A stretch of 58,389 bases of DNA from Bacteroidales bacterium (GTDB lineage: Bacteria; Bacteroidota; Bacteroidia; Bacteroidales; UBA4181). Location of the stretch: NCBI GenBank assembly GCA_031551935.1, contig JAVBMZ010000076.1:1-58389 (forward strand), in the 5' to 3' direction. Positions within the stretch are counted from its first letter, which is position 1. The number at the start of each line of letters is the position of its first letter. Shown piece by piece: positions 38,339 through 57,394 of this stretch. The translations under genes were made by a program, and so were the position numbers. Under the pieces are notes generated by a model that worked only from the letters and a program-made list of their open reading frames with translations, ran no database searches and was not told the origin of the DNA.

Positions 38339-40399
38339 TTAGGAAATTTTTCCGAGCACGTCTTCTACTACGTCTTTGGTCACATCATTCAAAATTATGT
38401 AAGGTGTTATTCCAGAAATCTTAATAAATCCATCTATTGCACTTTGATCGGCTTTAGTCCATTCCCTATTAGCCTCACAAATTAAAAATGCAACATTAAA
38501 TTGTCTAATCAATGTAATGGGATAATCATTCAGGATCAAGGATGGCAATTCTAAAATAAGCACATCTGTTTCATTCAATCGTTCAACTGGCACTAAATCT
38601 TCAGCTTTAGATTGATAAAAAGCACTATCTATCTTATAGTTGACTACTGACCAACTACCAGAATCAAGATAAGGGACAACAACCAAACACTTTTTCCCTT
38701 TCTGAAGTAATCGTTCGCATAATAGATTACTAATAGTTGTTTTTCCTTCGGAAGGCCGAGTACTAATAATCAATACTCGTTGTTGACTTTGTTGATTAGA
38801 AATATATATATTCCTGAGAATCGTATCACTTAAACCATCGCTGATTTGTTCCGAGTTTTTATATCCAGTTAATTCTTTGATGTTGGGAAATATACCACCT
38901 ATTTTTAAACCTGTAGCTTCTTCTGCTCTCTGAGGAGTTTTGATGTCAGCGTTGAAATATGCCAACAAAAGGCAAATCGCAGCCGGTATCAGGAACCCCA
39001 TCATCCCCCCCATAACAATATACAATTTTCGATAACTTGTTTTAGACATTAAAGGGTAATTGGGTTTATCTATTATTTGAATCGTAGAAAGAGACTGTTG
39101 ATCTTGTTGACGCATTTTACTTTGGTTCAAGTTTTGTAAAGCTGCTAAATAAGCCTTTTCATTAATGTCTATCTCTCTTTGAATACGCTTTAGCGTATCG
39201 CCTAATGGTAAAAACTGGCTATATTGTCCTATGGTTTCATTCCTTCGACTTTCTAATGCTTTTAATCGAGCTTTACTTTCTTCGTATGAAATCATTTTCG
39301 TAAAATATTCGGATACAACCTTATCACTAGCAACACCCCCAGAAGCTGCACCGGACATTTCTGCCATATCTCGATTCAATTCTTCCTTAATCTGGTCCAC
39401 CTGCAAACGCAAATTAGCAATTCTCTCTGGAGAGTTATTATTTAATTCGGCCATGCTCAGTTGATTGGATAATCGGCTTAATTGTTCCCGCTTGTCCAAA
39501 ATTTCCCTGTTTTTTAAGGTTTGTGCCTGAGAACCTAACTGGCTTTCTATATTTTTGAGAGCCGCTTCAGTAGCATAAATCACCTCTTGTTCCGCATGGA
39601 TTTGATTTAAAATATTTTCCCGTTGAGCTATCACAATATCGGTTTGGGCATCGTAATTAACCAAATTATTTGCTTTTTTAAACCATAGATCTTTTTCTTC
39701 TGATTTTTTTAATTGTTGACGCGCCAATTCTAGTTGTTTCTCAAAGTATGCAACCACTGAATCTGTTTGACTCTCATTGATTTTCCTAAAATTACGAATA
39801 CTCGCATCAATGAGAATCTCCAGTGTTTTTTGACAGATCCCCTGATCTTCAGAAGGGTAAATTAATTTAACAATATCACTATTCATGACTCTTGTAACTG
39901 TCACTTTGGATAATGCCGGAATGCTGTAGTATGCAGCTGGATAATTAATTTGCGCAATAAGATAAGGATGTGAATCTGAAATAGAGTCAAGCCGTCTATA
40001 AGTTTCTTCTGGGTTTTTTGTTATTAATTGTTGAATGTCTGTTGGAATCTGCTGTTTTATATATTCAAGGTGTTCTATAGTTATTAACTTCGGATCAGCT
40101 TTTTCAAGAGTTAAATGCAACGATAACAACCTCAATCCAACCTCCTTAAGAGTTTGTCTACTTTTAACAATGTTCAATAAATTATCAAAAGCGTAACGCG
40201 ATGTATTGTCTGGTCTGTTTTGAATGACACTTTCCATAGAATAGCCGGAAGCAATCCCCGTATAAACAGTAGCTTCAGATTCATATTCTTTGGGCATATT
40301 TCTTGTAAAAAAAATCACCAATATTACAGTGATTATGGGACACACAATAAGAATAAACGCATGTTTCAACAATGTATTGAATATATTCCGAATATCCAT
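38339..40399 (-). CDS. Polysaccharide co-polymerase (Wzz/GumC-like) with a C-terminal degenerate BY-kinase-like P-loop domain
   Basis: 686 aa. TM1 (FILIVCPIITVILVIFF) plus PKEYESEATVY (Wzz motif), a long coiled-coil periplasmic region, TM2 (LYIVMGGMMGFLIPAAICLLLAYF), then VLIISTRPSEGKTTISNLL (Walker A-like) and DVLILELPS. There is no C-terminal Tyr cluster. Confidence 0.8.
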   Translation of the reverse strand: MDIRNIFNTLLKHAFILIVCPIITVILVIFFTRNMPKEYESEATVYTGIASGYSMESVIQNRPDNTSRYAFDNLLNIVKSRQTLKEVGLRLLSLHLTLEKADPKLITIEHLEYIKQQIPTDIQQLITKNPEETYRRLDSISDSHPYLIAQINYPAAYYSIPALSKVTVTRVMNSDIVKLIYPSEDQGICQKTLEILIDASIRNFRKINESQTDSVVAYFEKQLELARQQLKKSEEKDLWFKKANNLVNYDAQTDIVIAQRENILNQIHAEQEVIYATEAALKNIESQLGSQAQTLKNREILDKREQLSRLSNQLSMAELNNNSPERIANLRLQVDQIKEELNRDMAEMSGAASGGVASDKVVSEYFTKMISYEESKARLKALESRRNETIGQYSQFLPLGDTLKRIQREIDINEKAYLAALQNLNQSKMRQQDQQSLSTIQIIDKPNYPLMSKTSYRKLYIVMGGMMGFLIPAAICLLLAYFNADIKTPQRAEEATGLKIGGIFPNIKELTGYKNSEQISDGLSDTILRNIYISNQQSQQRVLIISTRPSEGKTTISNLLCERLLQKGKKCLVVVPYLDSGSWSVVNYKIDSAFYQSKAEDLVPVERLNETDVLILELPSLILNDYPITLIRQFNVAFLICEANREWTKADQSAIDGFIKISGITPYIILNDVTKDVVEDVLGKIS

Positions 40400-40405
40400 T
40401 ATAAC

Positions 40406-41170
40406 CTATTTAATAATTTTAATACCAACCAAAGCTTCCATCAAACGTAAAGCTTTACTATAATTATTTTTTTCGATTTCATATGCATTCTGAGTTTTTA
40501 TAAAAGTTTCAGCAGATTGGGTATAATCTTTCAGGGATATTTTATTCCCAGCATAATCCATCTTGGCTTGATCAAACGTCATACTGGCTGACGATAATAG
40601 TTCTATTTGTAGATCTAATGTTTTCTGTTGTGTAAGCAAGTCATAATAAGCAGTAATTACCAATTGTCTTATATTATTTTCTATTATTTCCTTTTGAGCT
40701 CTGGCTTGCTCAATATTAATTTTTGCCTCCTGCCGAGGTAACTTACGATTCAAAACTTCGGAAATAGGCATTCTCATATTAAGACCTACCCCATACCTAA
40801 CCGAGGGTCTCTCCTGATCAGAATAATCAATCAAGACCTGTTCAGTAGAAAAATAAAAATCGCTACCATAACGCGCATCTCCCTGTAAATAAATCCATTT
40901 CATCCAATCTTTATTCAATTGCTTCAATTCGTATTGACTCAATAATATGGTATTATCAGCTATTCTCATTGCTGGAGAATGAATCAATGCCGAATCAATC
41001 AATGCCCCTAATGAAGGCAACATTTTAGAAAAATCGCTGTCTTCATTTGTTGCATCTCCTGATATTGATTGAGCATATATATCCCCTATTAACATTATGG
41101 AAACAAAGAATATGGAAAGTACAATTCGCATGGTGGTATGACAATGATCTTTACTCATTATATTATACAT
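40406..41170 (-). CDS. Half-size TolC-like outer-membrane protein (a single OEP repeat)
   Basis: 254 aa (likely start 41131, MRIVLSIFFVSIMLIGDIYAQS signal). ALIDSALIHSPAMRIADNTILLSQYELKQ ... YGVGLNMRMPI ... IRQLVITAYYDLLTQQKTLDL ... YSKALRLMEALVG follows the helix-strand-strand-helix pattern of one TolC/OEP repeat. Confidence 0.55.
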   Translation of the reverse strand: MYNIMSKDHCHTTMRIVLSIFFVSIMLIGDIYAQSISGDATNEDSDFSKMLPSLGALIDSALIHSPAMRIADNTILLSQYELKQLNKDWMKWIYLQGDARYGSDFYFSTEQVLIDYSDQERPSVRYGVGLNMRMPISEVLNRKLPRQEAKINIEQARAQKEIIENNIRQLVITAYYDLLTQQKTLDLQIELLSSASMTFDQAKMDYAGNKISLKDYTQSAETFIKTQNAYEIEKNNYSKALRLMEALVGIKIIK

Positions 41171-42374
41171 CTGATTTTTGAAACATTACTGGAATCGTTC
41201 TCAATAGAATAAATATGTCTCCAAAAAAAGAATTTTTATGAGCGTACATATTATCTAAAATAAATCTTTCTTCTTCTGACATAAAACCACCACGTCCACG
41301 AAGTTCCACTTGCCAAAGGCCAGTAAGCCCTGCAGCTGCACGAAATCTTCGCGACCACCGTGATTTTGTAATAGCATGCGCCTCATACACAGGTAATGGT
41401 CGATTGCCAACAATAGACATGTCGCCTTTCAATACATTAAACAATTGGGGTAACTCATCAATACTGGTATTACGAATAAACCGTCCCACCTTAGTGATAC
41501 GAGGATCATTTTGTATTTTCAGAAATGCCTTCTGTGCATTTTGCCGTTTCAGGGCCAAGCGTTCACAAATACGTTCACCATCATAGTAATATGCAGGTGA
41601 ACATAACTCGCCTTCAGACAACTTAGCACAGACAGAACAAACTAGTTCTACAGCATCATCCTGAGTCGCATATTGGTTGAGGTGTGCTACTTCTTTTAAC
41701 CGTCTATCAGCATCAGGGTACATGGACCTGAATTTGTAAAAATCAAAGGTTTTGTAATTAGCACCTACGCGTTTCGATTTATAAATCACTGCACCTCTTG
41801 ATTCAAGCCGAATAGCTATAGCCGTAAAAATCAGAATCGGCGACAACACCAAAAGTGCTATAAATGCTACAGAGATATCAAAAGCCCGTTTTATGAATGA
41901 TGTCTTATAGGGACGCATAAATTCTTCATCATTATCCTTTGCCTGATATTGATGTATAGATCTAGCATCTTGAAGATAAGCAATACGGTCATATATCAAT
42001 CGGTCGTCGATCGGTTTATTCAAGCATCCTTTAATACCTATCGATAAAGCCCTTTGTTTCAAATAATTATTTCGTTGCGTAGCAATTAGAATAAAAACAA
42101 GCCCCGTATTTAGGCCTGTTTTTTTCATTTCCTGAAACAATGCCATGCCATTCAACCCAGGTAGATTGGTTTCGCATACAATAGCATTAATATCACAACT
42201 GCGCTGAAGTCTATCCTGCTGAATAAATGCCTTAAAAGAACCATTGGTCAACCATTTGAACGCCATTAAACCATTAGTCTCATGATAAACCTCAAATAAA
42301 GAATTTGCTTTAAGACAGTCGAGCACTGTAGGATCATCGCCTATATATAATATTTTGAATGGAGTTTGGTCCAT
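41163..42374 (-). CDS. Receiver-domain-fused initiating phosphoglycosyl transferase (bacterial sugar transferase, WbaP/EpsL-type C-terminal domain)
   Basis: 403 aa. Residues ~5-135 are CheY-like (ILYIGDDP...AIVCETNLPGLNG...LNKP). Then a TM helix (ISVAFIALLVLSPILIFTAIAI), YKSKRVG, FYKFRSM, DPRITKVGRFIRNTSIDELPQLFNVLKGDMSIVGNRP. Confidence 0.85.
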   Translation of the reverse strand: MDQTPFKILYIGDDPTVLDCLKANSLFEVYHETNGLMAFKWLTNGSFKAFIQQDRLQRSCDINAIVCETNLPGLNGMALFQEMKKTGLNTGLVFILIATQRNNYLKQRALSIGIKGCLNKPIDDRLIYDRIAYLQDARSIHQYQAKDNDEEFMRPYKTSFIKRAFDISVAFIALLVLSPILIFTAIAIRLESRGAVIYKSKRVGANYKTFDFYKFRSMYPDADRRLKEVAHLNQYATQDDAVELVCSVCAKLSEGELCSPAYYYDGERICERLALKRQNAQKAFLKIQNDPRITKVGRFIRNTSIDELPQLFNVLKGDMSIVGNRPLPVYEAHAITKSRWSRRFRAAAGLTGLWQVELRGRGGFMSEEERFILDNMYAHKNSFFGDIFILLRTIPVMFQKSDV

Positions 42375-42378
42375 AATT

Positions 42379-42786
42379 TTATATCCCTATACGACTCAAA
42401 AAACGTTCGCGAACTTCCAAACGACGTTTGATACGAGCTATTACTTCGCTGGGATTAAATGGCTTAACAACATAATCCTCTGCTCCCAATTCAAAGCATC
42501 TGATTTTATCTTTACTCCATTCCCGCCCCGAAAGAATCATAATTGGAATGTCATCAAAAAAACCGCTACTTTTGATTCTTTCCAAAAATTCGAATCCGTT
42601 TAATTCAGGCATTACTAAATCGCATATAATCAGATCTGGAAAATTACCTGCCTCCAAATAATCGAGCCCCTCCTGTCCATTAGACAAAGAAATTACATCA
42701 AACTCTTGTTTAAGAGTATTTTCAATAATAAATCGAATACTTTTCTCGTCGTCTATAACTAAAATTTTCTTTTTGGCCATAACCAA
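42379..42786 (-). CDS. Stand-alone CheY-like response regulator (receiver only)
   Basis: 135 aa. ILVIDDE, PDLIICDLVMPELNG (acceptor Asp), IMILSG, VVKPF. All canonical receiver residues are present and there is no output domain. Confidence 0.9.
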   Translation of the reverse strand: MVMAKKKILVIDDEKSIRFIIENTLKQEFDVISLSNGQEGLDYLEAGNFPDLIICDLVMPELNGFEFLERIKSSGFFDDIPIMILSGREWSKDKIRCFELGAEDYVVKPFNPSEVIARIKRRLEVRERFLSRIGI

Positions 42787-42817
42787 ACTAGCCTTTGATC
42801 GTAATATTTTTTATAAA

Positions 42818-42825
42818 CAAATATA
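42818..42825 (-). promoter_or_regulatory. Candidate -7 box (TATATTTG on the minus strand) for the EPS operon
   Basis: The + strand caaatata is the reverse complement of TAnnTTTG, ~32 nt upstream of the regulator ATG (42786). Confidence 0.3.
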
Positions 42826-43192
42826 ATGCCTCAATACTTAATATCATATTATAATATACGAAAGAAATGCTAAAAAGTTTTCTTTTTCTCTAACACTAAT
42901 TTTTGTAATTAGGGTGTTTTCAAACGACACTATGTTATTAGATAGAAAAGTATGTTTGTTCTGATATTATTTTTGGAACAACAAAGGTACATACTTCTCT
43001 TAAATATGTGTCAATACTTCTTTAAAAACACTTGATTTTATATTTGTATTCTTGACCATTTTTTATATGTTTGCTACGAAAGTGAAGGAAGGTTTATTGG
43101 TAAATAATCAAGTAGGGATTATGCAACTTATCCTTGTTCTGAGATACACAGTACTTTCCAAACACTATCATAAATATTCAACATCAACATAT

Positions 43193-44179
43193 ATGAAAAT
43201 CCTTATAACCGGAGCAAGTGGATTTATTGGTAGTTTTATCGTGAACGAAGGCCTAAATAGAGGTTATGATGTATATGCCGGCATTCGTTGCACTAGTAGT
43301 CTTCAATATTTACCGAAAGATATCAAAACAGTAGAACTTAGCTTTGATAACAAAGATTTGTTGAAATCAGAATTAAGTACTCTTGGTCGGTTTGACTATA
43401 TCATCCATAATGCAGGAGTCACCAAATGCAATCATAAAACGGATTTTGATAAGGTAAATTACGGATATACCCGCAATTTTGTAGAAGCATTAACCGAAAG
43501 CAATGCTGTACCAAAAAAGTTTCTATTTGTCAGCAGTATGGCTGCCTTTGGGCCTGGAGATCCCAAAACATTAGAACCTGTCAAACTTACAGATGTGCCT
43601 AAACCAGACACTCTCTACGGGAAAAGCAAACTCAAAGCTGAAGAATTCATTATGTCACAACTTGGATTTCCTTACATATTTATCAGACCAACAGGAGTTT
43701 ATGGACCAAGGGAAAAGGACTATTTTGTATTTTTGAAGACCATTAATAATCACCTGGAACCAGCTATGGGTACCAAGAAACAGCATCTTACTTTCATTTA
43801 TGTTACCGATTTAGTGAATGTTATGTTTTCAGCATTAGAATCTGAATACTATCAAAAGGCATGGTTCGTTTCCGATGGTAAGGTTTATGATAACCGTGAA
43901 TACGCAAACATCGTAAAAAAACATTTAAACCGAAAAACCCTATATTTACCTGTACCGCTATTTTTGGTTAAAGCTATTTCTTACACTTTAGATTTCATTG
44001 GCGGGTTGTTCGGCATATCTCCTACGCTCAATAAAGATAAATACAAAATTATGCGTGCTACTAATTGGAAATGTGACGTAGAACCTTTACAACAAGAATT
44101 GGGTTTTAAAGCCCTATACGATCTGGATAAAGGGATTGAAGCATGTGTACAATGGTACAAAACAGAACATTGGCTCTAA
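43193..44179 (+). CDS. NAD-dependent epimerase/dehydratase (extended SDR)
   Basis: MKILITGASGFIGSFI (GxxGxxG) at 43193, and YGKSK (YxxxK catalytic motif). The 47 codons upstream in the track ORF look like non-coding leader. Confidence 0.85.
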   Translation: MKILITGASGFIGSFIVNEGLNRGYDVYAGIRCTSSLQYLPKDIKTVELSFDNKDLLKSELSTLGRFDYIIHNAGVTKCNHKTDFDKVNYGYTRNFVEALTESNAVPKKFLFVSSMAAFGPGDPKTLEPVKLTDVPKPDTLYGKSKLKAEEFIMSQLGFPYIFIRPTGVYGPREKDYFVFLKTINNHLEPAMGTKKQHLTFIYVTDLVNVMFSALESEYYQKAWFVSDGKVYDNREYANIVKKHLNRKTLYLPVPLFLVKAISYTLDFIGGLFGISPTLNKDKYKIMRATNWKCDVEPLQQELGFKALYDLDKGIEACVQWYKTEHWL

Positions 44180-44219: not shown

Positions 44220-47200
44220 CTATTCCCAGTTGGGTAGTCGATATATTGGACCTGTATCTATTGACGGTACAACCATAATATCCAAAGTTCCTATTTCGCT
44301 GCTGCATCCATTGGCTACCACTGTCACACTGATAGTTCCACTGATAGATCCCGGCATGACACTGATGATACGGCTATCAGGATCTGAGGAGATGATTGTC
44401 CAACCGGCAGGAAGTGCCCAAATATAGGTCGCACCGGGAACATCTGTAGCCATATAAGTTACTTGCTGTCCAACACATACAGATGATGAACCTGTTATAT
44501 TCGGAGTTGCTGGTCTCTGACGTACTTCAATAGGTAATACACTTTCTTTGCCTACCCCACACAACAAGCTGGTTCCTTTGACAGTAATAGCGCCGGATTG
44601 TGCCGTAACTGGCCAATATACTGATATTTTATTCGTATTACTACCGCTTTCGATGCTGGCACCTATAGGAAGCGTCCATTCGTAACCATCAACAGTCATG
44701 GCAGGAATACTGTATTCAATATGTTCCGATGGCACACAGATAATATCAGGGCCACTGATAGCACCTGCATCTTCTATCTTGCTCAATACGGTTACCACTG
44801 ATGGTTCGGAATATGTTTCGTCACAATTACCTGCTTTTATTACTGCACGATACCATACTTCTCCCATATCATTTAAAGTGTTGAGTAAAATATCTTCTGT
44901 GACGAATATGTCTTTCCATGTAAAACCTTTGTCAGTACTACTTTGCCAACGAACAATCTTTCCAAGGTATTCTTTTGCTATCAATTCGAACGTTTTACCC
45001 GGACAGGATGTAAGTGTAGCAGGTGTCACTTTACCTCCGGTAGTCGACGAAATAACATCTACGGAAAGTATTTGAGAATAAGCGTTTGAACACTCACTCA
45101 TGGCTACCTCGGCACGGTATTCCCATTTACCACCTTCGGGAGGCGTCATGGCAATGACATCATTAGTTTCGAGAACATCTGTCCATGTAGTGGTTATGGT
45201 AGTATTACGTTGTTGCCATCTCACCACCTCGCCCTTGTATTCTTCAAGATATAACATGAAACTTTTGCCGGAGCATACATATTCGCTCGCATTGGTGGTA
45301 ACCATGCCGCCTACTGCAACAGGCAGTACGACAATTTCAGCCAATTTGGAATATTCAGGACCGCGATCTCCATTAAAAACTCTGACACGGTATTGCCATC
45401 TCCCCGAGAAACGCGGACTAACTGTGATGATATTTTGGTTTTTCACCGTATTGAAAGTGGTCCAATCGCTAACTACTGTTCCGTCTTCTTCCAGATAACG
45501 GATATCCCAAGCTGCAATACTTGTTTTATAATCCTGAGCCCTCAGTACTACTGTGGCGTCTTGACAGATTGTACTCAACGCAGGAGTAATGGAACCACCT
45601 ACAGGCCTATCACTGGTATCATCTTCCGGTATATTTTTGGATTCAAACGGAATGTCATGGGTAATCGCCCATTTGCCATCGCGATTAAGGGCACGCACAT
45701 ACAGGACATGTTGTCCGAGATCGATACCTGTTAGATCGACATCGAAAGATTTGTCAACATTCCGGTCTGGTGATGGTTCAATCGGCTTGCCTTTACCAAA
45801 GCCAGGATCGGTATCGACAAAATACTCGATGCGGACGATATCTGGGACTCCTTTGATAGCAGGTATTTTGATAAAAGCATTATAGTGTGTGACACTCCAG
45901 CTATTGTCTTCATTAATAGCTCTTATAAATAAGATATGTAATCCGTCGGATAGAGTACTTGTCGGAACAAGAAACTTACGGCTGGCCTTTTCTACTGTCG
46001 GACTGATGGCGATCATATGCCCCATACCAAATCCAGGATCCCTGTCAAAGAAATATTCCAAGGCTTTCACTTTGGATATTTTTGTTTCTTCCATATCCAC
46101 CACCTGTACACTGATGTCCTGAGTGATGCTCCACTTATTGAACTCGTCAAGTGCGCGGACATACAGGGTGTGTGATCCGGAAGTAAGCATATCGGCAGTA
46201 ATTGTGAGACTGGCGGTATAGTCTTTCGCAGATGGGCTAATAGCTACGCTCTTACCTTTCCCAAACCCCGGATCAGTATCAATGAAATATTCTACTGCAA
46301 CAACGTTTGGACGCACCCTGACGGTTGATTTGATGAATGACCGGAATTGCGTAATACTCCAATTTCCCTTGCTATCCTTAGCCCTAATATAAAGTTGATG
46401 TATTCCATCATCGATGGCTGTAAGCGAAATGGCAAAAGTACGAGTGACTTTGTTAGCTACCGTAAATGGAGGTATAGCATGAGCATTACCAAAGCCCGGA
46501 TCATGGTCCATAAACCATTCGATGGCAATGACATCCGATATAGTTGCTATATCAACCTTCATGAAACCAATATTATGAGTAATACTCCATTTTCCGGCAT
46601 CGTCAAGCGCCCTTACGTAGAGTGTATGAAATCCCTCAGATACATTGTCTACATTTACATGAGCACCTGTCAAACTGCCACGAGTCGCTTTTCCAAACCC
46701 AGGATCCTGATCAATAAAGTATTCAATAGCAACTGGGTTAGGTATGATACGTTGTTCTACCTTGATAAATTGATTATATTGCGTCTGACTCCAATGTCCT
46801 AATGTATCCTGAGCACGAACATAGAAAGTATGCAATCCCGGCAAAGTGTTTGCTGGAAGCTGTGCTGTGAATGATTTGATGACCTGTGTTCCCGATATGG
46901 GGATCATGGTTCCTTTCCCAAAACCACGATCTTCATCAAAGAAATATTCAATATAAGCTAAATCGGATGTTAATAATTCACCTACAGAACGTTTGATAAA
47001 AGAGATATCCTGAGTAATACTCCACATACCGGATTTATCCAGTGAACGAATATACAAAGTATGTCCCCCGTCAAGTAGATTCTCGGTTTCCACAACAAAT
47101 GCCGGATTCATGTTATTTCCTGTAAGCGGGATGCTTCGTCCGGATCCGAATCCCGGATCGGTATCCACAAACCATTCCAGACGTGCTAATTCGGTATAAT

Positions 47201-50200
47201 CTCTTGTAGAATGCACTTTTACAAAATTTTGATATTGGGTGATACTCCAAGAGCCCTTATTATCCTTCGCACGGATAAACAAGGTATGCATACCTTCATT
47301 TAATCCAGAAACAGGTATATTGATTTTAGCGGTAACCTGTTTGCCAGGCGTAACCGGAACAACGGTATTCTGGCCAAAACCCTTATCTGTATCGATAAAA
47401 TATTCCAGAGCTTCTACTTCGTTCAATTTAACAACATAGAAAGGCTGATATTGTGTGATACTCCAGGCATCAGTATCATTTTTTGCCCTAACATAGAAGT
47501 TATGCCATCCCTCGTTTAATGCCGATATATCAACAGTGAATGTTTCTATAACAACGCGTTGAGGCGTAGCATAAGTGAATCGCTGTGATGCAGGCACCTT
47601 ACCAAAACCTGGATCATCATTTTCATCATCGCCAATAAACCATTCAATGGCAGCGACATCTGCGATTTGGCGTGTGTCTTCATAACGCACAAAAGTAATG
47701 TCCTGCGTGATACCCCAATGATTCTTATCATCCAAAGCACGGATATACAATGTATGCAAACCATCTGTTAAATTGGCAGCATCAATGAACACAAAAGCAT
47801 GTGTTATTTCTGTTCCTGAAATACCGATTTGCTGACCTGCACCAAAACCGGGATCAGTATCAATGAAATATTCTAATGCGACAAGATTGGCGGGTGTTTG
47901 TTGTGTTGTTTTCAGGAAAGTGAACCGTTGGGAAATACTCCATTTTCCCAGATTATCCCTCACACGCACATACATGGTATGTATACCGTCAGATGTGCCG
48001 GACAAGTCAACAGGCACCGTTTGAGAAATTTGTGATGACGGAGTAACAGCGGTCAGATTTGGTGATTTGCCAAAGCCGGGATCAGTGTCGACAAACCATT
48101 CATAAGCGACAATGTTACGTAATATATTTTCTTCCAGCCTAATAAACGAGAAGTCTTGGGTAATTCCCCAACGTCCGTTTTCGTTCTTTGCACGGATGTA
48201 CAAGGTATGCATTCCTGGCAAAAGTGCAGTGGTATTGATGGGAATATTGACTGTACTTGACGTAACCGTCACAGGATTAGCCAGTCCAAATCCAGGATCG
48301 GAATCAATAAACCATTCCATGGCAACAGTATGGGAGGCATGGTGTTTCGATGCCTTAATGAACTGTTGTATTTGCGTAATACTCCATGAGCCCAAATTAT
48401 CTTTTACTCTCACGTATATGGTATGAATTCCGTCTGCCAATAACGAACTATTGACTTGAACAGTTTTCATTATGCTGGTTCCTACCGTTATAGGGATGTC
48501 GATTCCTGCGCCAAATTCTTTCCATTCATCAATGTAATATTCTGCCTTCACAATATTTTTGACCTTGATTTCCTCAAGTCTTATGAAAGTAACATCTTGT
48601 GTAATACTCCATTCATTGTTTTCATCACGAACGCGCACATATAAGGTATGTAAACCGGGTAATTTATTGGTAAGATCAACATTAAAAGTTTTGTCAATCG
48701 TGGTTGATGGAGTAATGCTTACCTGATTTGCCTTGCCAAAACCCGGATCGGTATCGATAAAATATTCCATACCCAACATTTTGCGATCGCGCATTACTTT
48801 CACTACATTGAAAGTAGCATATTGTGTAATGCTCCATTCATTTTCCATTCCTTTGGCACGAACATAAAGCGTATGTATACCAGGGGCAAATCCGGTTAAA
48901 GGAACATAAGCAGTCACCACAGCATGATCGTCTCCGTATGGAATAGGCATGGCTGTTGCACTTCCAAAGCCTGGATCAGTATCGATGAAGTATTCCAAAG
49001 CGGCTAATCCCGGCTGTTTAGTAATATCTATTACCTCAAAATCAAGCGAATGAGTGATACTCCATTGTCCGTTTCCATTTAATGCGCGAACATACAAGGT
49101 ATGTGTCCCAGAATTCATATGATCGGGTAATGTAACATTGAATAGCCTATTAATTTCTGTTGCTGCGCTAATGGTTACCTTTTTTGCCTTACCAAATCCA
49201 GGATCTATGTCAATGAACCATTCCATACTGACAACCGACGGAATCGGTTTGATTTCTATCCGCATGAATGTAGAACTTTGCGTATGACTCCATTTGCCTG
49301 TATTATCTAACGCCCGTACATACACAGCATGAAGTCCGGACTTCAGGGTATCTACATTGACTGTAATACGTTGCCGTACACTCTGATCGGGTGTTTGAGT
49401 CGCTACATAGTTCGCATTGCCAAATCCGGGATCTTTATCAACAAAATATTCAAAAGCGACGATACTCTTGATTCCTTCAAACCTTGGAATACCTGTATTA
49501 AATATCGAAATATCCTGGGTATGGCTCCATTGTCCAAGACTATTCATCCCTCGCACATACAATGTATGAGCGCCTTCGGGGACTGTATCGAGTTCGATGA
49601 AGAATCTATGATTGACGTCCACACTCCTGTTCGGAATATTGACCATAGTGGCATTGCCAAACCCGGGATCGTCATCCAAGAAATATTCCAAAGCCACAAT
49701 ATCTGGAAATCCGTACAGGCGTGGGTTTTCGACTATTACTAAATTAATATCCTGTGTAATTGTCCAGAATCCCTGATCATCACGAGCACGAATGTACAAT
49801 GTATGAATGCCTGACCAAATGTCATCAGTAGGTATAAACACCTGTTGATAAACATCTTCACCTATGTTGTTGATCGGTATATTTTTACCTTTACCAAATC
49901 CGGGATCGGTATCAATAAAATATTCCAGGTATGAGACTTTTTTACTGACATTCAATGGAATATCAGTGCTAAAAAAACTGATATCTTGTGTAATAGTCCA
50001 TTTACCGTTGGCATCGGCAGCACGCACATACAACGTATGCGGTCCATTATCAATTCCGCTTAAACTAATATCAAAAGATGTACCTGTATTGATTCCCGTT
50101 GGAACAGACAATTGATTTGCTTTTCCAAAACCGGGATCAACATCGATAAACCATTCCATGCGACTGATTTCAGCCAGTTGGTAGTCAGCAGGTATCGCAG

Positions 50201-52850
50201 ATTTGACAAAAGTTCTCCAATGGGTGATACTCCATTTGCCCTTTTCGTCAATAGCACGTACATAAAAGGCATGCAGGCCAGTATTAAGTGATGCAGTACT
50301 GACTGCAAATTTTTTCTGTACATTCTGTCCTTTGGTATCAATGGATATCCGATTAGCTTTGCCTATGCCAGGATCTGAGTCGACAAAATATTCTATTGCC
50401 GTCACATCAGCTATTGAGTAATTTTCTGGTAACTCCGAAACATACAAATCAATCGATTGGGTGATACTCCATTTGCCCAACACGTTTTGCGAACGAATGT
50501 ATAAGGTATGTGATCCGGAAGACACGTCGTCGAGTTGTACCGGAATAAGCTGTTCGCCGGAAGATTGCTGTGACAGGGTTACTATATTTCCAGTCCCAAA
50601 ACCTTTGTCTTTGTCAATAAACCACTCTAAAAGTCGCACATCAGCTTTATCGGGTATCGAGATTTTCAGAAAAGTCTTCATACTGGTCATACTCCATACC
50701 CCATTATTCATACGGGCACGCACATAGAATGTGTGTATTCCCTCTTTGATAGATGCTGATAAAGGCACATTAAATGTCCGACTGACCTTAACGCCAGAAG
50801 TGACATCCACCGCAACAGCCTGTCCAAAACCCGGATCGGTATCGATAAAATATTCTAATGCTACAATTGTTCCTGCTGTTTCTGCGACCATGCTGTAAAA
50901 GGAAACATCTTGTGTAATGCTCCAATCGCCTTTCCGGTTAAGCGACCGTATATACATAGTATGCATCCCCTCGCTATATCCATTATTGATATTGATAACC
51001 AATGTACCATTTGCAGGAATAGGAACTTGCGTGCCTTTTCCAAAACCGGGGTCGCGATCAACGAAATATTCCATTGTAACCGCTTCGCTCAATCCCTCGC
51101 ACACTAAAAAGTGTTGTTGTTGGGTAATGCTCCAATGACCAGAAGCATCCATAGCACGGACATAAAGCGTATACCAACCCTTTTCGGCTCCACCAAGATT
51201 GACGCGGAAAGATTGCGAAATATATTGTCCTTGCACAAATGGGATATTGATAGCTTTTCCAAAGCCAGGATCGGTTTTCCCTGCATCATCCTGTTTTGTG
51301 ATAAAATACTCCAATCTGACAACATCAGGTGTTTCAGGCGCTATCAGACGAAATACCGTCTCATTTTGTGTAACACTCCATTGTCCTTTTGCATTTCGGG
51401 CACGCACATAGAGTGTATGCAAACCTTGTTCTAAATTTTCAAAATCAGCAGTAAATGTCTTGTCTACCTCACTACCCGATATCGCTACTTGATGGGCTTT
51501 ACCAAAACCAGGATCGGTATCTATAAACCATTCAAGCGCAGTCATTGGGTCGCCACCAATGGACATTGCCTTTACAAACATATTGTTCTGTGTGATACTC
51601 CATTTACCGGCTTTATTACGGGCACGCACATAAAGTCTATGCAAACCAGCGCTCAATTGCGAAGTATTGACAGTAAAAGATTGTGTTGACCGTTGTCCCG
51701 GTGCATTCAAAGGTACAGGAATAGCGTTTCCAAAACCCGGATCAGTATCGACAAAATATTCTACATAATTAACATCAAATGCCGTCTGGGCATCGATTTT
51801 AATGAACTCGAGCGTCTGTACAATTCCCCATCGACCCATACTGTTTTTCGAACGTATATACAGCGTATGTACCCCACTCCCTAATGTATCAACATTAATT
51901 TGAAAAGAGGAAGTAATATTCTGGGCTGGAACGTTAATATTGACTGGTGCAGCCTTACCAAATCCGGGATCGGTGTCAATAAAATATTCTAATTGTTCGA
52001 TGTTTGAACCCGTTGAGATATCTGCCTTAACAAAAGTATTACTTTGTGTAATACTCCACTTGCCATCGGAATTGCGCGCACGCACATAGAGTCGATGTAC
52101 GCCTGAACCTATTTGTGAGATATCAACTGTGAATGGTTGTACCACATGGTCGCCCGGCGAAGTAACGACTATATTATTTGCTTTTCCAAAGCCCGGATCC
52201 ACATCAATAAAATATTCCAGGCCTGTGATGTCTGGCAACACTTCAACAAAAAACTGTTGGTAAGATCTTGTTTGGGTAATGCTCCATCGTCCATCCCTAT
52301 CCATTGAACGGATATAAAGCGTATGAGTGCCTGCAGCAGATGGGTCTACACTAATATTGACCAATTGATCAATATTTGCCCCTTGTGTTATCTCAATTTT
52401 ACTCGCCTGACCTATGCCAGGATCGGTATCGATAAAATATTCGAGTCGGACAACACTGGGTACTACATGTATTTTGGTACGGATAAAGGAACGCGCCTGA
52501 GTGATACTCCATACAGGAGTCAGATCGGCTCCATAAGACATGGCCCGTACATACACATGATGAATCCCTTCGGATAAATGAGCTGTAGAAACATTATTAA
52601 CGGTAATAGATATGTCACCTCCCGGGGTAAAGCCTGTTATAATAGGTGTTGCTTTACCTACACCCGGGTCGTTATCAATAAAGTATTCTAAACGCCGAAT
52701 TTGATTTTGGGCAGAAAGTGGTAAAGAAATGAATAAAGAACAATAAATAATAAAGCATGAGAGGCGATATATCATTCTGCCAAGGTTTTTTTGCCTTGAT
52801 ATGGGCTTTTCGATGTGCCATTTGTGATATATATGCCGAATTAAATTCAT
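44220..52850 (-). CDS. Giant secreted repeat protein (2876 aa): 31 tandem ~76-aa units of unassigned family, then 3 Cys/Trp-containing ~90-aa domains, then 2 PKD-like domains
   Basis: Uninterrupted 8.6-kb ORF. The probable start is 52775 (MIYRLSCFIIYCSLFISLPLSAQNQ signal peptide). For repeat details see the repeat feature at 45603..52700. The C-terminus (...DIMVVPSIDTGPIYRLPNWE) lacks type-A and type-B T9SS sorting motifs. Confidence 0.9.
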   Translation of the reverse strand: MNLIRHIYHKWHIEKPISRQKNLGRMIYRLSCFIIYCSLFISLPLSAQNQIRRLEYFIDNDPGVGKATPIITGFTPGGDISITVNNVSTAHLSEGIHHVYVRAMSYGADLTPVWSITQARSFIRTKIHVVPSVVRLEYFIDTDPGIGQASKIEITQGANIDQLVNISVDPSAAGTHTLYIRSMDRDGRWSITQTRSYQQFFVEVLPDITGLEYFIDVDPGFGKANNIVVTSPGDHVVQPFTVDISQIGSGVHRLYVRARNSDGKWSITQSNTFVKADISTGSNIEQLEYFIDTDPGFGKAAPVNINVPAQNITSSFQINVDTLGSGVHTLYIRSKNSMGRWGIVQTLEFIKIDAQTAFDVNYVEYFVDTDPGFGNAIPVPLNAPGQRSTQSFTVNTSQLSAGLHRLYVRARNKAGKWSITQNNMFVKAMSIGGDPMTALEWFIDTDPGFGKAHQVAISGSEVDKTFTADFENLEQGLHTLYVRARNAKGQWSVTQNETVFRLIAPETPDVVRLEYFITKQDDAGKTDPGFGKAINIPFVQGQYISQSFRVNLGGAEKGWYTLYVRAMDASGHWSITQQQHFLVCEGLSEAVTMEYFVDRDPGFGKGTQVPIPANGTLVININNGYSEGMHTMYIRSLNRKGDWSITQDVSFYSMVAETAGTIVALEYFIDTDPGFGQAVAVDVTSGVKVSRTFNVPLSASIKEGIHTFYVRARMNNGVWSMTSMKTFLKISIPDKADVRLLEWFIDKDKGFGTGNIVTLSQQSSGEQLIPVQLDDVSSGSHTLYIRSQNVLGKWSITQSIDLYVSELPENYSIADVTAIEYFVDSDPGIGKANRISIDTKGQNVQKKFAVSTASLNTGLHAFYVRAIDEKGKWSITHWRTFVKSAIPADYQLAEISRMEWFIDVDPGFGKANQLSVPTGINTGTSFDISLSGIDNGPHTLYVRAADANGKWTITQDISFFSTDIPLNVSKKVSYLEYFIDTDPGFGKGKNIPINNIGEDVYQQVFIPTDDIWSGIHTLYIRARDDQGFWTITQDINLVIVENPRLYGFPDIVALEYFLDDDPGFGNATMVNIPNRSVDVNHRFFIELDTVPEGAHTLYVRGMNSLGQWSHTQDISIFNTGIPRFEGIKSIVAFEYFVDKDPGFGNANYVATQTPDQSVRQRITVNVDTLKSGLHAVYVRALDNTGKWSHTQSSTFMRIEIKPIPSVVSMEWFIDIDPGFGKAKKVTISAATEINRLFNVTLPDHMNSGTHTLYVRALNGNGQWSITHSLDFEVIDITKQPGLAALEYFIDTDPGFGSATAMPIPYGDDHAVVTAYVPLTGFAPGIHTLYVRAKGMENEWSITQYATFNVVKVMRDRKMLGMEYFIDTDPGFGKANQVSITPSTTIDKTFNVDLTNKLPGLHTLYVRVRDENNEWSITQDVTFIRLEEIKVKNIVKAEYYIDEWKEFGAGIDIPITVGTSIMKTVQVNSSLLADGIHTIYVRVKDNLGSWSITQIQQFIKASKHHASHTVAMEWFIDSDPGFGLANPVTVTSSTVNIPINTTALLPGMHTLYIRAKNENGRWGITQDFSFIRLEENILRNIVAYEWFVDTDPGFGKSPNLTAVTPSSQISQTVPVDLSGTSDGIHTMYVRVRDNLGKWSISQRFTFLKTTQQTPANLVALEYFIDTDPGFGAGQQIGISGTEITHAFVFIDAANLTDGLHTLYIRALDDKNHWGITQDITFVRYEDTRQIADVAAIEWFIGDDENDDPGFGKVPASQRFTYATPQRVVIETFTVDISALNEGWHNFYVRAKNDTDAWSITQYQPFYVVKLNEVEALEYFIDTDKGFGQNTVVPVTPGKQVTAKINIPVSGLNEGMHTLFIRAKDNKGSWSITQYQNFVKVHSTRDYTELARLEWFVDTDPGFGSGRSIPLTGNNMNPAFVVETENLLDGGHTLYIRSLDKSGMWSITQDISFIKRSVGELLTSDLAYIEYFFDEDRGFGKGTMIPISGTQVIKSFTAQLPANTLPGLHTFYVRAQDTLGHWSQTQYNQFIKVEQRIIPNPVAIEYFIDQDPGFGKATRGSLTGAHVNVDNVSEGFHTLYVRALDDAGKWSITHNIGFMKVDIATISDVIAIEWFMDHDPGFGNAHAIPPFTVANKVTRTFAISLTAIDDGIHQLYIRAKDSKGNWSITQFRSFIKSTVRVRPNVVAVEYFIDTDPGFGKGKSVAISPSAKDYTASLTITADMLTSGSHTLYVRALDEFNKWSITQDISVQVVDMEETKISKVKALEYFFDRDPGFGMGHMIAISPTVEKASRKFLVPTSTLSDGLHILFIRAINEDNSWSVTHYNAFIKIPAIKGVPDIVRIEYFVDTDPGFGKGKPIEPSPDRNVDKSFDVDLTGIDLGQHVLYVRALNRDGKWAITHDIPFESKNIPEDDTSDRPVGGSITPALSTICQDATVVLRAQDYKTSIAAWDIRYLEEDGTVVSDWTTFNTVKNQNIITVSPRFSGRWQYRVRVFNGDRGPEYSKLAEIVVLPVAVGGMVTTNASEYVCSGKSFMLYLEEYKGEVVRWQQRNTTITTTWTDVLETNDVIAMTPPEGGKWEYRAEVAMSECSNAYSQILSVDVISSTTGGKVTPATLTSCPGKTFELIAKEYLGKIVRWQSSTDKGFTWKDIFVTEDILLNTLNDMGEVWYRAVIKAGNCDETYSEPSVVTVLSKIEDAGAISGPDIICVPSEHIEYSIPAMTVDGYEWTLPIGASIESGSNTNKISVYWPVTAQSGAITVKGTSLLCGVGKESVLPIEVRQRPATPNITGSSSVCVGQQVTYMATDVPGATYIWALPAGWTIISSDPDSRIISVMPGSISGTISVTVVANGCSSEIGTLDIMVVPSIDTGPIYRLPNWE
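45603..52700 (-). repeat. 31 head-to-tail coding repeats (68-82 aa, ~230 nt)
   Basis: Every unit starts [LMIVFYA]E[YW][FY][IVLFM]DxDPGFGxA and ends GxHTLY[VI]RAxDxxGxWS[IV]TQxxxF. The DNA block ccaaaNccNggatcNgtatcNatNaaNtaYtc recurs at ~230-nt spacing with differences at synonymous sites. Confidence 0.9.
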
Positions 52851-52870: not shown

Positions 52871-52907
52871 CCTAACAGGTTTGTCAAACCTGTTAGGTTT
52901 ATTTTTT
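52871..52907. repeat. CCTRACAGG-family hairpin (12-bp perfect stem) plus T-run on the + strand, in the leader of the giant gene
   Basis: cctaacaggttt (52871-52882), gtc, aaacctgttagg (52886-52897), then tttatttttt. It lies 21 nt upstream of ATG 52850 and 96 nt upstream of the probable start at 52775. Confidence 0.7.
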
Positions 52908-53353: not shown

Positions 53354-53381
53354 CCTGACAGGTCTTTGAAGACCTGTCAGG
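53354..53381 (-). terminator. CCTRACAGG-family hairpin, 11-bp perfect stem, 8 nt after the stop of 53389..54993
   Basis: cctgacaggtc (53354-53364), tttgaa, gacctgtcagg (53371-53381). There is only a weak U-tract on the minus strand (ttaaaata). Confidence 0.5.
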
Positions 53382-55049: not shown

Positions 55050-56186
55050 TTAATGCGCCATTACTTTTACAGTCACTTCAAAGCCATCGGCAGAGACTTC
55101 TGTCGGCATTACAATTTCATATACGGCTGGTATAGAAGTAAGCCCCGATTTACCATAAGGCGCTAATCCACCATACATACCGTATTCTTTAATGGCAGCA
55201 GCTTCGGTTGGTATATTGCGTAAAGGCGAAGGACTTCCTGTTTTAGAAGTAAAATAAGCATCATACAACTCATTGTTGCCCGAACCTGTGAACCAAGCTA
55301 ATGGATCGGTTGCTGCCGATACCGTATTGGCTTCACCGTTTTCAACAACTCCCGTCCATGCATAATTGGTAATGTTTTGTGTACATGGTTTAGAGGGAGC
55401 ATCCACTGTAATAGCAGATGCAACGTTACTGGCTGCACGGTAAAATGCATTGCGGGTAATATCTGCCCCTGTGTTCATAGTCGTAATGGCAAAATTTTTG
55501 TAAAAAGTATTGTTGCTGATACGCGATTTTACATTTACGTTCAAATCAATAACTGTATTGCCAGTTCCGTCATTTCTGAAAAAATTGTTCATAATGTTCA
55601 GGTTGGAAACAATAGAAGCGCCGGTAGTACGTATGACGCCTGGTCCAAACCATGATTTTTTAATATCAATATCACTCAAGGATTTGTCATTGTTGATCTC
55701 TACAACAAAAAGCCGGCTATTGATCACTTTGACATAGCTGGCATTGATGATCACGCGAGGACCTGTCCACAATGCTGCAGAAGCTGATGTCATGGCAACA
55801 GTGAAACTCGAAGTACTGGTGTTTGCCTGAGCATGCACATCATGTTCCACACCTGCTATTACCACACTATCAGCCGTAATCGTAATGGTACCCAGTTTTG
55901 CCGGTTGCTTGATGTATTGTGTTTCCAAGTTATTCGACAAATAATATCCCGGACCGAAAATATGCAGGGCTTTTTTATTGATAGTTACACTATTAAGATA
56001 TGGTATGGAAGACCCCTCTATATGTATGGTATCGCCTGCCCCCACCCGATTGTCATCGATAACGGCTTGCGTGAAATCTGTAAAATCGCAAGCTACTCCT
56101 GCGTTATTGTTTACCCGCCATATTTTAGCGGAGGCATTATATCCTCCCACAAGCAGGCTTACAAAAATGATCAGATACTTCTTCAT
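55050..56186 (-). CDS. Secreted right-handed parallel beta-helix protein, paralogue 2 (378 aa)
   Basis: Signal ...GYNASA|KIWRVNNN, GDTIHIEGS, IFGPGYYL, IMNNFFRNDGTGN, ISNNTFYKNF, ITRNAFY. C-terminal EYGMYGGLAPYGKSGLTSIPAVYEI...GFEVTVKVMAH. Confidence 0.75.
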   Translation of the reverse strand: MKKYLIIFVSLLVGGYNASAKIWRVNNNAGVACDFTDFTQAVIDDNRVGAGDTIHIEGSSIPYLNSVTINKKALHIFGPGYYLSNNLETQYIKQPAKLGTITITADSVVIAGVEHDVHAQANTSTSSFTVAMTSASAALWTGPRVIINASYVKVINSRLFVVEINNDKSLSDIDIKKSWFGPGVIRTTGASIVSNLNIMNNFFRNDGTGNTVIDLNVNVKSRISNNTFYKNFAITTMNTGADITRNAFYRAASNVASAITVDAPSKPCTQNITNYAWTGVVENGEANTVSAATDPLAWFTGSGNNELYDAYFTSKTGSPSPLRNIPTEAAAIKEYGMYGGLAPYGKSGLTSIPAVYEIVMPTEVSADGFEVTVKVMAH

Positions 56187-56230: not shown

Positions 56231-56263
56231 AGACCTAACAGGAAAACAATACCTGTCAGGTCT
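56231..56263. repeat. CCTRACAGG-family hairpin plus T-run on the + strand, between paralogues 3 and 2
   Basis: agacctaacagg (56231-56242), 9-nt loop, cctgtcaggtct (56252-56263), then ttttatttattt. The single A/C mismatch on the + strand becomes a G-U pair on the minus-strand RNA. Confidence 0.65.
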
Positions 56264-56281: not shown

Positions 56282-57394
56282 TTAATGAACACTCGCTTGA
56301 ATGACCATATCAAATTGATTACCTACTTCACCATCCATCAGGATGCTATATACTGAAGGTATTGCATACATTCCTGAACGAATATACGGTGTGCGTCCTC
56401 CATACATGCCGCGTTGTTTTTCGTCGCTGGTGAGATCACTGTTATCTCTCAATGGACAAGTGGCGCCCATGTGCGCCGAACGATAATATACATCTATTTT
56501 TTCGTCGTTACCGCTACAGGAAAACCAGTTCTCAAGCGTCGCAAACTGCACATCATTTACACCTCCATAGGTCGTAATTTGTGCATCAAATGCGATATTG
56601 GAAACATTACTATTATATGTATTGGTAGAATAATAATTCAATGCCGGTGTTACTGTGGAGTAAAAAGCATTGCTTTCAATATTTGTATTGTACACAGTTA
56701 CTTTAAAATTTTTATAAAAGGTATTGTTCCCAAGTCGCCAGTCAGCGCAAGCCGTCACTGATGTATTAGCAATGACATCATAAGGAGTCTGATCATTGCG
56801 GAAAAAACAATTGCTGATGCTTAAACTTGTAATAGGATTTGCTGTGTTTTTGGCCACATACACCACACCTGGGTTAAAAAAACATTTCTGAATGGAAATA
56901 TTGATCAACGACTTGTTGTTATTGTTCAGTTCAACAAAAAATAACCGGCAATTAATAATTTTAATCGTATCGGTCTGAATAACAATCTTGTTTCCCGCAT
57001 AAGCAGAGGTGGAAACAATAGAAAAACCGCTGGTCGAACCCATATTGTATTGCTCAATCCCTGCAATCACAGAACCTTGACTACCAGTATCAAAAATAAT
57101 GTTACCGTTCATCTTAGCCGGTTCCTTGTTGTATTGCGTTTTTTCCGTAGATGTCAAAAAATATCCCGGACCAATAATCACCACCTTACGATCTATGGTC
57201 ACATTACCAGTGTATGGACTCACCGAACCTTCAATATGAATGGTATCAACCGCCGTTTTGGAAGCCGCGCCTACCGCATCGTTCAGTGAGGTATAAACAT
57301 TTAATAAACCTGTATTATTGTTCACCCTGAGAATTTTAGCCTGTAAAGAAGGCGTCAAAATCATCAGAAATATCCATAAATATCCTTGTTTCAT
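56282..57394 (-). CDS. Secreted right-handed parallel beta-helix protein, paralogue 3 (370 aa)
   Basis: Signal ...TPSLQA|KILRVNNN, DTIHIEGS, IIGPGYFL, ISNCFFRNDQ, LGNNTFYKNF, IESNAFY. C-terminal QRGMYGGRTPYIRSGMYAIPSVYSI...FDMVIQASVH. Confidence 0.75.
   Translation of the reverse strand: MKQGYLWIFLMILTPSLQAKILRVNNNTGLLNVYTSLNDAVGAASKTAVDTIHIEGSVSPYTGNVTIDRKVVIIGPGYFLTSTEKTQYNKEPAKMNGNIIFDTGSQGSVIAGIEQYNMGSTSGFSIVSTSAYAGNKIVIQTDTIKIINCRLFFVELNNNNKSLINISIQKCFFNPGVVYVAKNTANPITSLSISNCFFRNDQTPYDVIANTSVTACADWRLGNNTFYKNFKVTVYNTNIESNAFYSTVTPALNYYSTNTYNSNVSNIAFDAQITTYGGVNDVQFATLENWFSCSGNDEKIDVYYRSAHMGATCPLRDNSDLTSDEKQRGMYGGRTPYIRSGMYAIPSVYSILMDGEVGNQFDMVIQASVH

Follow-up and report, generated by a model that had tools for sequence, protein, structure and literature searches.

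A 31-unit repeat protein and its beta-helix-like partners suggest a two-part cell-surface system in Bacteroidota

What is a bacterial protein for when more than 80% of its length is a single small domain repeated head to tail? The question is raised by contig JAVBMZ010000076.1 of a Bacteroidales genome assembly (GenBank GCA_031551935.1), whose 58,389 nucleotides are hereafter called the window. On its minus strand, a giant open reading frame (ORF) encodes a tandem array of 31 EYF units, and three genes for secreted, beta-helix-like (BH) proteins lie upstream of it. Giant repeat proteins of Bacteroidota surfaces are mostly annotated 'hypothetical' or 'PKD/Ig-like'. Here we show that EYF units constitute a large family across Bacteroidota, not peculiar to the giant protein, and that the pairing of BH and EYF genes is near-obligate, at about 95% in both directions. 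This pairing is a new result, and it suggests a previously undescribed two-part cell-surface system. The 31-unit protein is apparently an extreme expansion of that system, with its type IX secretion system (T9SS) signal swapped for a short conserved tail.

The four genes of the cluster, in the order in which they are read, are:

56282..57394, minus strand: BH paralogue 1, 370 residues, with a signal peptide, the N-terminal motif KILRVNNN..DTIHIEGS and the C-terminal motif GMYGG.TPY..SG..IP.VY...H
55050..56186, minus strand: BH paralogue 2, 378 residues
53389..54993, minus strand: BH paralogue 3, 534 residues, with insertions
44220..52850, minus strand: the giant ORF, 2876 residues from the first ATG, its frame unbroken over 8.6 kb

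All three BH proteins of the window are secreted, and both ends of the mature proteins are conserved among them, the N-terminus as [AK]I[WL]RVNNN...DTIHIEGS and the C-terminus as GMYGG..PY..SG..IP.VY...V.VKV..H. Pfam, NCBIfam and the PDB sequences contain no match for any of the three. The BH family comprises 651 matches among the scored candidates, every one of them annotated 'hypothetical'; one distant member, P0371, rises above the gathering score of the Pfam Beta_helix family (PF13229; 26.8 versus 25.9 bits). We detected no T9SS sorting domain in BH proteins. The possibility that the BH C-terminus is a type-A T9SS C-terminal domain (CTD) was examined by hhalign against the CTDs of the EYF partners; the probability was 0.3%, and the idea was rejected at that sensitivity.

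The gene pair recurs almost wherever it can be followed. Three BH genes followed by a giant EYF gene, in the same order, are found in the window and on contigs L001, L003 and L006, and a BH trio also ends contig L004. Distant, single-copy BH members (∼27% identity) have an EYF protein encoded within a few bases downstream. Indeed, in all 18 genome loci that contain a BH gene and sequence downstream of it, the next ORF is an EYF ORF on the same strand, and no other EYF ORF occurs within ±10 kb of these loci. The reverse also holds. Metagenome contigs were sampled with a degenerate DNA pattern for EYFIDTDPGFG, keeping EYF ORFs that were complete at the N-terminus and had at least 1.1 kb of upstream sequence; a BH ORF lies directly upstream in 89 of the 94 (95%). 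That the EYF and BH families are functionally coupled is thereby established. A literature search on T9SS, LytTR and beta-helix proteins found no description of the BH–EYF pair.

Contigs such as L085, L092, L068, L117 and L131 have either two BH–EYF pairs in tandem or a short EYF gene (3–5 units) preceded by two to three BH genes, so that multiplication of BH genes is not confined to giant arrays. The pair also has recurrent neighbours. A kinase-family gene adjoins it in 13 of 22 genome loci and a response-regulator-family gene in 10 of 22 (L008, L011, L019, L022, L023, L024 and others). The kinases that were analysed with Pfam are LytS-type histidine kinases (PF06580), with tetratricopeptide repeats (TPR) in L019 and L022, and the regulators analysed in this way combine Response_reg with LytTR. 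In L019 the BH, EYF, kinase and regulator genes all lie on one strand.

How widespread are EYF units, and where in a protein do they sit? An exhaustive hidden Markov model search over 1.84 billion representatives, clustered at 50% identity, recovered 9,408, 5,671 and 2,700 clusters at E≤1e-3, 1e-10 and 1e-30, respectively. The named sources are Bacteroidales, Chitinophagales, Cytophagales, Flavobacteriales, Rhodothermales or the 'FCB group'. Proteins usually carry 3–10 copies, with a median of 7 among the best-scoring members retrieved. Arrays of at least 30 units are found in the giant protein's own subfamily and in the 4,500-residue T9SS cargo P0022/P0023, which has 52. The domains that co-occur with EYF (Por_Secre_tail, PKD, CARDB, LRR, FN3, peptidases and LamG) are those of typical T9SS cargo. 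In nearly all partners, those of 2,000–3,300 residues included, no more than ∼100 residues separate the first EYF unit from the start; the units thus occupy the end of T9SS cargo that is farthest from the C-terminal anchor and distal to the cell. This position disfavours EYF as a mere spacer. The smallest partners consist of a signal peptide, two or three EYF units (mostly three) and a type-A T9SS CTD, and nothing more; Pfam confirmed Por_Secre_tail in four of these minimal proteins.

We next set out the giant protein itself. Its features are:

52707..52775, minus strand: predicted general secretory (Sec) signal peptide of the signal peptidase I type, MIYRLSCFIIYCSLFISLPLSAQ, read from the sequence directly
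45615..52691, minus strand: 31 EYF units, residues 54–2412, defined by motif scan, alignment, AlphaFold2 (AF2) models and collinearity with orthologues
44760..45599, minus strand: three copies of a ∼92-residue Cys-containing domain (GGxITP...C...W.YR..V....C)
44532..44768, minus strand: PKD_6 domain (PF19408; 94 bits over two stretches, best at residues 2695–2773)
44265..44513, minus strand: another PKD_6-like domain, which weakly matches Ig_7 (the 'CHU_C-associated' immunoglobulin (Ig) domain)
44223..44255, minus strand: conserved C-terminal tail TGPIYRLPNWE, compared with orthologues and with a type-B CTD

The first-pass annotation of this DNA described a secreted protein of 2876 residues. 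That is the length from the first ATG, and a signal peptide is indeed predicted; the start itself is probably M26, at window position 52775, which gives 2851 residues. The public gene call P0016, which is 100% identical and on the same contig, uses this start. M26 is favoured because it places the typical Sec signal peptide at the very N-terminus, and the orthologues have the same kind of N-terminal start. Five residues separate the signal peptide from the first EYF unit. The Cys-containing domain has no Pfam or NCBIfam match in this region, and it is also present after the EYF units of the 1230-residue T9SS cargo encoded at L008.

A scan for the motif that starts each unit returns exactly 31, of 68–82 residues each, arranged head to tail (consensus xxIVxxEYFIDTDPGFGKA...F.V.....GxHTLYVRAxDxxGxWSITQxxxF). 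The number and size of the units are as first annotated, and the span proposed then (45603..52700) was essentially right. Alignment of the 31 units shows no variation at E, G, G, R and W and conservation of at least 90% at F, D, D, G, F, H, Y and T, a framework matching the one described earlier. Beyond it the units have diverged widely. Pairwise identity among them is 22–54% in protein (mean 38.5%) and 40–60% in DNA (mean 50%). No two units have a nucleotide word of more than 32 nt in common, and Tandem Repeats Finder reported no repeat in the DNA, the units being too diverged. At residues that are identical between units the same codon is used in a fraction of 0.467, where 0.423 is expected from the codon usage of the gene: synonymous sites between units are near saturation.

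The array is ancient and under purifying selection, as was originally claimed, and it is kept unit by unit. Runs of reciprocal best hits between units show that units 8–11, 13–20, 26–28 and 30–31 are collinear with units 11–14, 16–23, 33–35 and 37–38 of the orthologue P0017. The units are thus positional orthologues of units in proteins that are 43–47% identical overall, and because orthologues of such low identity remain collinear, the array must be older than the split of these lineages. Collinear arrays in independent assemblies have 34–41 units, or at least 30 on an ORF truncated by its contig end. Could the giant ORF be an assembly artefact or a decaying pseudogene? The record is a metagenome-type contig, and beyond this we found no support for the idea. 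Collapse of a misassembled repeat is implausible since the units are at most 60% identical in DNA and collinear arrays occur on independent contigs; the frame, moreover, is intact over 8.6 kb. We regard an artefact as scarcely credible.

Is the EYF unit a known domain? The most direct candidate is Y_Y_Y (PF07495), whose summed score over the whole giant protein is 158.9 bits against a Pfam cut-off of 26.6. However, this score adds up sub-threshold pieces: when the units are scanned singly, 2 of the 31 reach E<0.01 and the best is 0.0014. The alignment covers positions 26–62 of the 65 in the profile, corresponding to the last hairpin of the unit, GxHTLYVRAxDxxGxWS, and leaves the EYFIDTDPGFG half without a counterpart. 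In NCBIfam, an OmpL47-type domain (NF047446) and GbpA are matched in the same summed fashion; PF21868, in the precomputed annotations, is GbpA_D3. Across Pfam and NCBIfam, no model covers a whole EYF unit, and the weak matches (Y_Y_Y, GbpA_D3 and OmpL47) are confined to the last hairpin. Sequence-profile searches of the PDB with alignments of 31 and 113 units gave nothing significant, the best being BT4663 (a Y_Y_Y protein, E 0.72) and GbpA (E 0.84). The precomputed annotations from a newer Pfam release contain no accession common to the EYF family, which suggests that this release also lacks a dedicated model, and a literature search for the motif (DxDPG, DPGxG, EYFxDxDPG) found nothing relevant.

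These families nevertheless share something with EYF. Y_Y_Y, GbpA_D3 and OmpL47-type domains all have the hairpin G-x-[HY]-x-[LF]-x-[VI]-[RK]-A-x-D-x-x-G-[NK]-[WS] within an Ig-like sandwich, whereas none has a counterpart of the N-terminal half of EYF, with its strand A (EYFID) and DPGFG turn. Context separates them too. The known domains are found singly, either following a beta-propeller sensor or within a lytic polysaccharide monooxygenase colonization factor, whereas EYF units form N-terminal tandem arrays in T9SS cargo; Y_Y_Y usually follows a Reg_prop propeller in sensor kinases, a setting that is absent here. Foldseek does place the Y_Y_Y domains of BT4663 (4a2l/4a2m) and BT3049 (3v9f) among the structural matches of a single unit, with E 0.15–0.2 and template-modelling (TM) scores of 0.41–0.44, which marks a broad fold class and not a close relationship. 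We therefore think it highly improbable that the array is simply Y_Y_Y. The EYF unit is a new sequence family in the Ig/FN3-like fold class, a distant relative of Y_Y_Y and GbpA_D3 through its last hairpin.

The structural models agree with this placement. AF2 predicts an all-beta fold both for one unit, from a 113-sequence alignment (predicted local distance difference test (pLDDT) 95.2, predicted TM score (pTM) 0.79), and for three consecutive units (pLDDT 87.2, pTM 0.72). No PDB structure matches one unit in Foldseek at E≤1e-3. Nearest are the FN3-like domains of CbhA (3pdd/3pe9; TM 0.53, probability 1.0); ColH/ColG PKD domains, GbpA and the two Y_Y_Y proteins are among the other matches, at TM 0.38–0.45. 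On these models the unit is a small Ig/FN3-like (E-set-type) beta-sandwich, at the level of fold only. The domain that was first annotated as unassigned has, then, no dedicated model and no family extending over its full length in Pfam or NCBIfam, and its predicted fold is no orphan.

How are successive units joined? At one junction of the three-unit model the final strand of unit 17 stays unbroken across the linker and becomes the EYFI(D) strand of unit 18 (model residues 61–87). In addition, a strand in the variable middle of the unit (residues ∼32–40) forms in the three-unit model and is absent from the single-unit model. Together, these two features suggest extensive unit–unit contacts and a stiff rod rather than loose beads, although the contacts were read from DSSP strings only. 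A long secreted fibre, as envisaged in the first-pass annotation, is plausible. The best Foldseek matches of three units are the extender of MpIBP (6xi3), RbmA and SiiE; they are weak (E 3e-4, TM 0.2).

Does the rod bind calcium? The acidic DxDPG loop had been likened to Ca2+-binding loops of the DxDxDG type. In such loops positions 1, 3 and 5 are Asp (or Asn) and position 6 is Gly. The EYF consensus, D-x-D-P-G-F-G, has Pro at position 4 and Gly at position 5, and distant members often replace the first Asp with N, G, S or T and retain D-[PN]-G-x-G alone. The motif thus does not fit the canonical loop, which leaves Ca2+ binding unsupported, and D-[PN]-G-x-G looks like a tight structural turn. 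A broader version of the idea, which does not exclude other functions, is that an acidic E/DxDPG site binds Ca2+ at the junctions between units, as in cadherins, SiiE or MpIBP, and that stiffening the rod in this way is the main role of the framework. Within the giant protein the E is invariant and D-x-D is kept at 90% or more; the topology of the AF2 model would put the DxDPG turn where strand A ends, close to the following unit; and Ca2+-dependent tandem Ig adhesins are among the three-unit Foldseek matches. Against this, the motif is not DxDxDG and often keeps only D-[PN]-G-x-G in distant members, a pattern that fits a tight turn, and the E could form a pair with the equally invariant R in YVRA of the adjacent strand instead. 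We consider a Ca2+-stiffened rod distinctly doubtful.

Where does the protein go? Export across the inner membrane, via the predicted Sec signal peptide, is established. The next step is less direct. P0022/P0023 and the minimal EYF partners carry a T9SS CTD, whereas neither a type-A (PF18962/TIGR04183) nor a type-B (PF13585/TIGR04131) CTD was found in the giant protein or its five closest orthologues. Instead, all six full-length giant-protein orthologues end in TGPIYR[LV]PN plus one or two residues. The likeness of this tail to the type-B CTD of another protein of the window is confined to the first strand of that CTD (LRIPNAFSPNGDG), after which the giant protein stops; the tail could on this ground be a sorting signal in vestigial or minimal form. 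Short, non-canonical T9SS signals exist in Prevotella intermedia (PMC11969387), so that a missing match to a CTD model is not proof against T9SS targeting, whether of the tail or of BH.

The other protein is encoded by a second giant ORF (8574..17171, minus strand; 2865 residues) that has SprB repeats, HYR/HYR_4C and PKD_5 domains and a CHU_C type-B T9SS domain. A PorP/SprF gene (7610..8593, minus strand) adjoins it, and the two make a classical gliding-adhesin-type pair. An SprB-like ORF with a CHU_C domain beside a PorP/SprF gene shows that the organism has a T9SS.

We propose that the giant protein is a Sec-exported, rigid surface fibre or scaffold of EYF modules that acts with the BH proteins, a reading to which we give about an even chance. 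The EYF array and the BH protein would cooperate at the surface of the cell. The stalk would come from the EYF protein, as would the T9SS anchor in most relatives, and the EYF protein would hold or present its BH partner, either along the array, as on a scaffold, or as a cap at one end attached through the C-terminal strands of BH. In the lineage of the window the system would have expanded to three BH paralogues and 31–41 EYF units, with the T9SS CTD replaced by the short conserved tail TGPIYRLPN.

A simpler explanation is that the array is a passive extender, a rigid spacer like the BIg regions of RTX adhesins that projects an adhesive part, and that BH is co-regulated with it and not associated. 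The identity of the best three-unit Foldseek matches (the MpIBP tetra-repeat extender, RbmA and SiiE) speaks for this, as does the company that EYF units keep with many kinds of extracellular module (PKD, CARDB, LRR, FN3 and peptidases). Those structural matches are weak, however. EYF units sit at the distal N-terminus and not between anchor and head domain, the minimal members have only EYF units and a CTD, and no distinct head is present at the N-terminus of the giant protein. A pairing of 95% with BH would also be left to be explained. A scaffold fits better than a passive spacer on three grounds, namely the complementarity of the EYF side, which has an anchor or signal, with BH, which has an enzyme-like beta-helix, the distal position of the EYF units, and cargo made of EYF units alone. 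A passive extender seems to us unlikely.

Several points nevertheless weigh against a scaffold that works with BH. Gene adjacency indicates functional coupling and not binding, and BH–EYF docking is something that we infer. The interfaces between units in the models, and any metal site, were read from DSSP strings only. The giant protein has no T9SS CTD recognizable by Pfam or NCBIfam, so that its exposure at the surface is assumed from its relatives. By analogy with the Prevotella signals (PMC11969387), the C-terminal ∼40 residues of BH could be an atypical short T9SS signal, in which case BH would be secreted alone. As for the pairing itself, ∼5% of the sampled EYF genes have no BH gene directly upstream, the orthologue P0021 (L002) has none in the 2.2 kb of upstream sequence available, and a metagenome sample based on EYFIDTDPGFG under-represents divergent EYF members.

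The proposal can be taken one step further. EYF units may be docking modules and the ∼40-residue C-terminal module of BH (CG.FGG..PY.LSG.P.IP.IY...V.VK) their ligand, in a T9SS-anchored display system of cohesin–dockerin kind that would be widespread in Bacteroidota and often encoded beside a TPR-histidine kinase/LytTR pair. The giant protein would then be the scaffold, offering up to 31 sites for three BH paralogues, and TGPIYRLPN would be a new anchoring or export signal in place of the CTD. This is speculative, and we hold it to be rather improbable as a whole. Its model, the scaffoldin of cellulosomes, is similar in logic only: repeated beta-sandwich modules on an anchored protein, and separately encoded enzyme-like proteins with a short conserved C-terminal module, as in BH. 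Unlike cohesins and dockerins, to which they have no kinship in sequence or structure, EYF proteins typically have one BH gene each, and binding is hypothetical here.

Two other surface systems invite comparison with a fibre that acts with BH. Giant RTX adhesins (MpIBP RII, 6xi3; SiiE BIg, 2yn5), like EYF arrays, have dozens of tandem Ig-like modules that form a long rod on a Gram-negative surface. By contrast, the giant protein has no RTX repeats or type I secretion signal (neither Pfam nor NCBIfam finds RTX, Hemolysin-type or BIg families in it, and its C-terminus consists of PKD_6/Ig_7 domains and the short tail), and it belongs to a different domain family and a different phylum. EYF export proceeds by Sec and, in relatives, T9SS, there is a near-obligate BH partner gene, and Ca2+ dependence is hypothetical. 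SprB/SprF, and type-B CTD proteins with PorP/SprF-like genes generally, resemble EYF–BH in that a Bacteroidota surface protein is encoded beside a specific partner. The BH partner, however, is an upstream, soluble, beta-helix-like protein and not a PorP/SprF outer-membrane barrel, and BH pairing tracks the N-terminal EYF domain and not the type of CTD.

With an ordinary Ig-like sandwich as its fold and the architecture of a giant surface protein, the 31-unit fibre is not categorically new. The significance lies in the link, which defines a new system that can be tested. Two families without a model in Pfam or NCBIfam, one of more than 9,000 clusters (EYF) and one with hundreds of members retrieved (BH), are joined by one of the tightest pairings that can be expected from synteny. 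EYF and the BH partner provide two new domain definitions for annotation, and the two-component hypothesis offers a possible route for surface display of proteins without a T9SS signal. Mariniflexile soesokkakense KCTC 32427, Taibaiella lutea KVB11 and Foetidibacter luteolus YG09 are in culture, and the hypothesis can be tested in them.

Downstream of the giant gene (38339..44179) lie a convergent gene for an NAD-dependent epimerase and then a polysaccharide cluster, which encodes a stand-alone receiver domain, a Bac_transf sugar transferase carrying a receiver domain, a protein of the OEP family and a chain-length protein of the Wzz/GNVR kind. The window contains no tRNAs.

The intergenic gaps of the BH/giant cluster are occupied by palindromes:

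53354..53381, no strand assigned: perfect palindrome CCTGACAGGTC-TTTGAA-GACCTGTCAGG, just after the stop codon of BH paralogue 3
52871..52897: related perfect palindrome CCTAACAGGTT...AACCTGTTAGG, immediately before the giant ORF

Between BH paralogues 1 and 2, at ∼56234–56260, there are related 9-mers. The palindromes may be terminators or a repetitive extragenic palindromic (REP)-like intergenic repeat element; in L003 a similar sequence is apparently translated as spurious N-terminal extensions or small ORFs.

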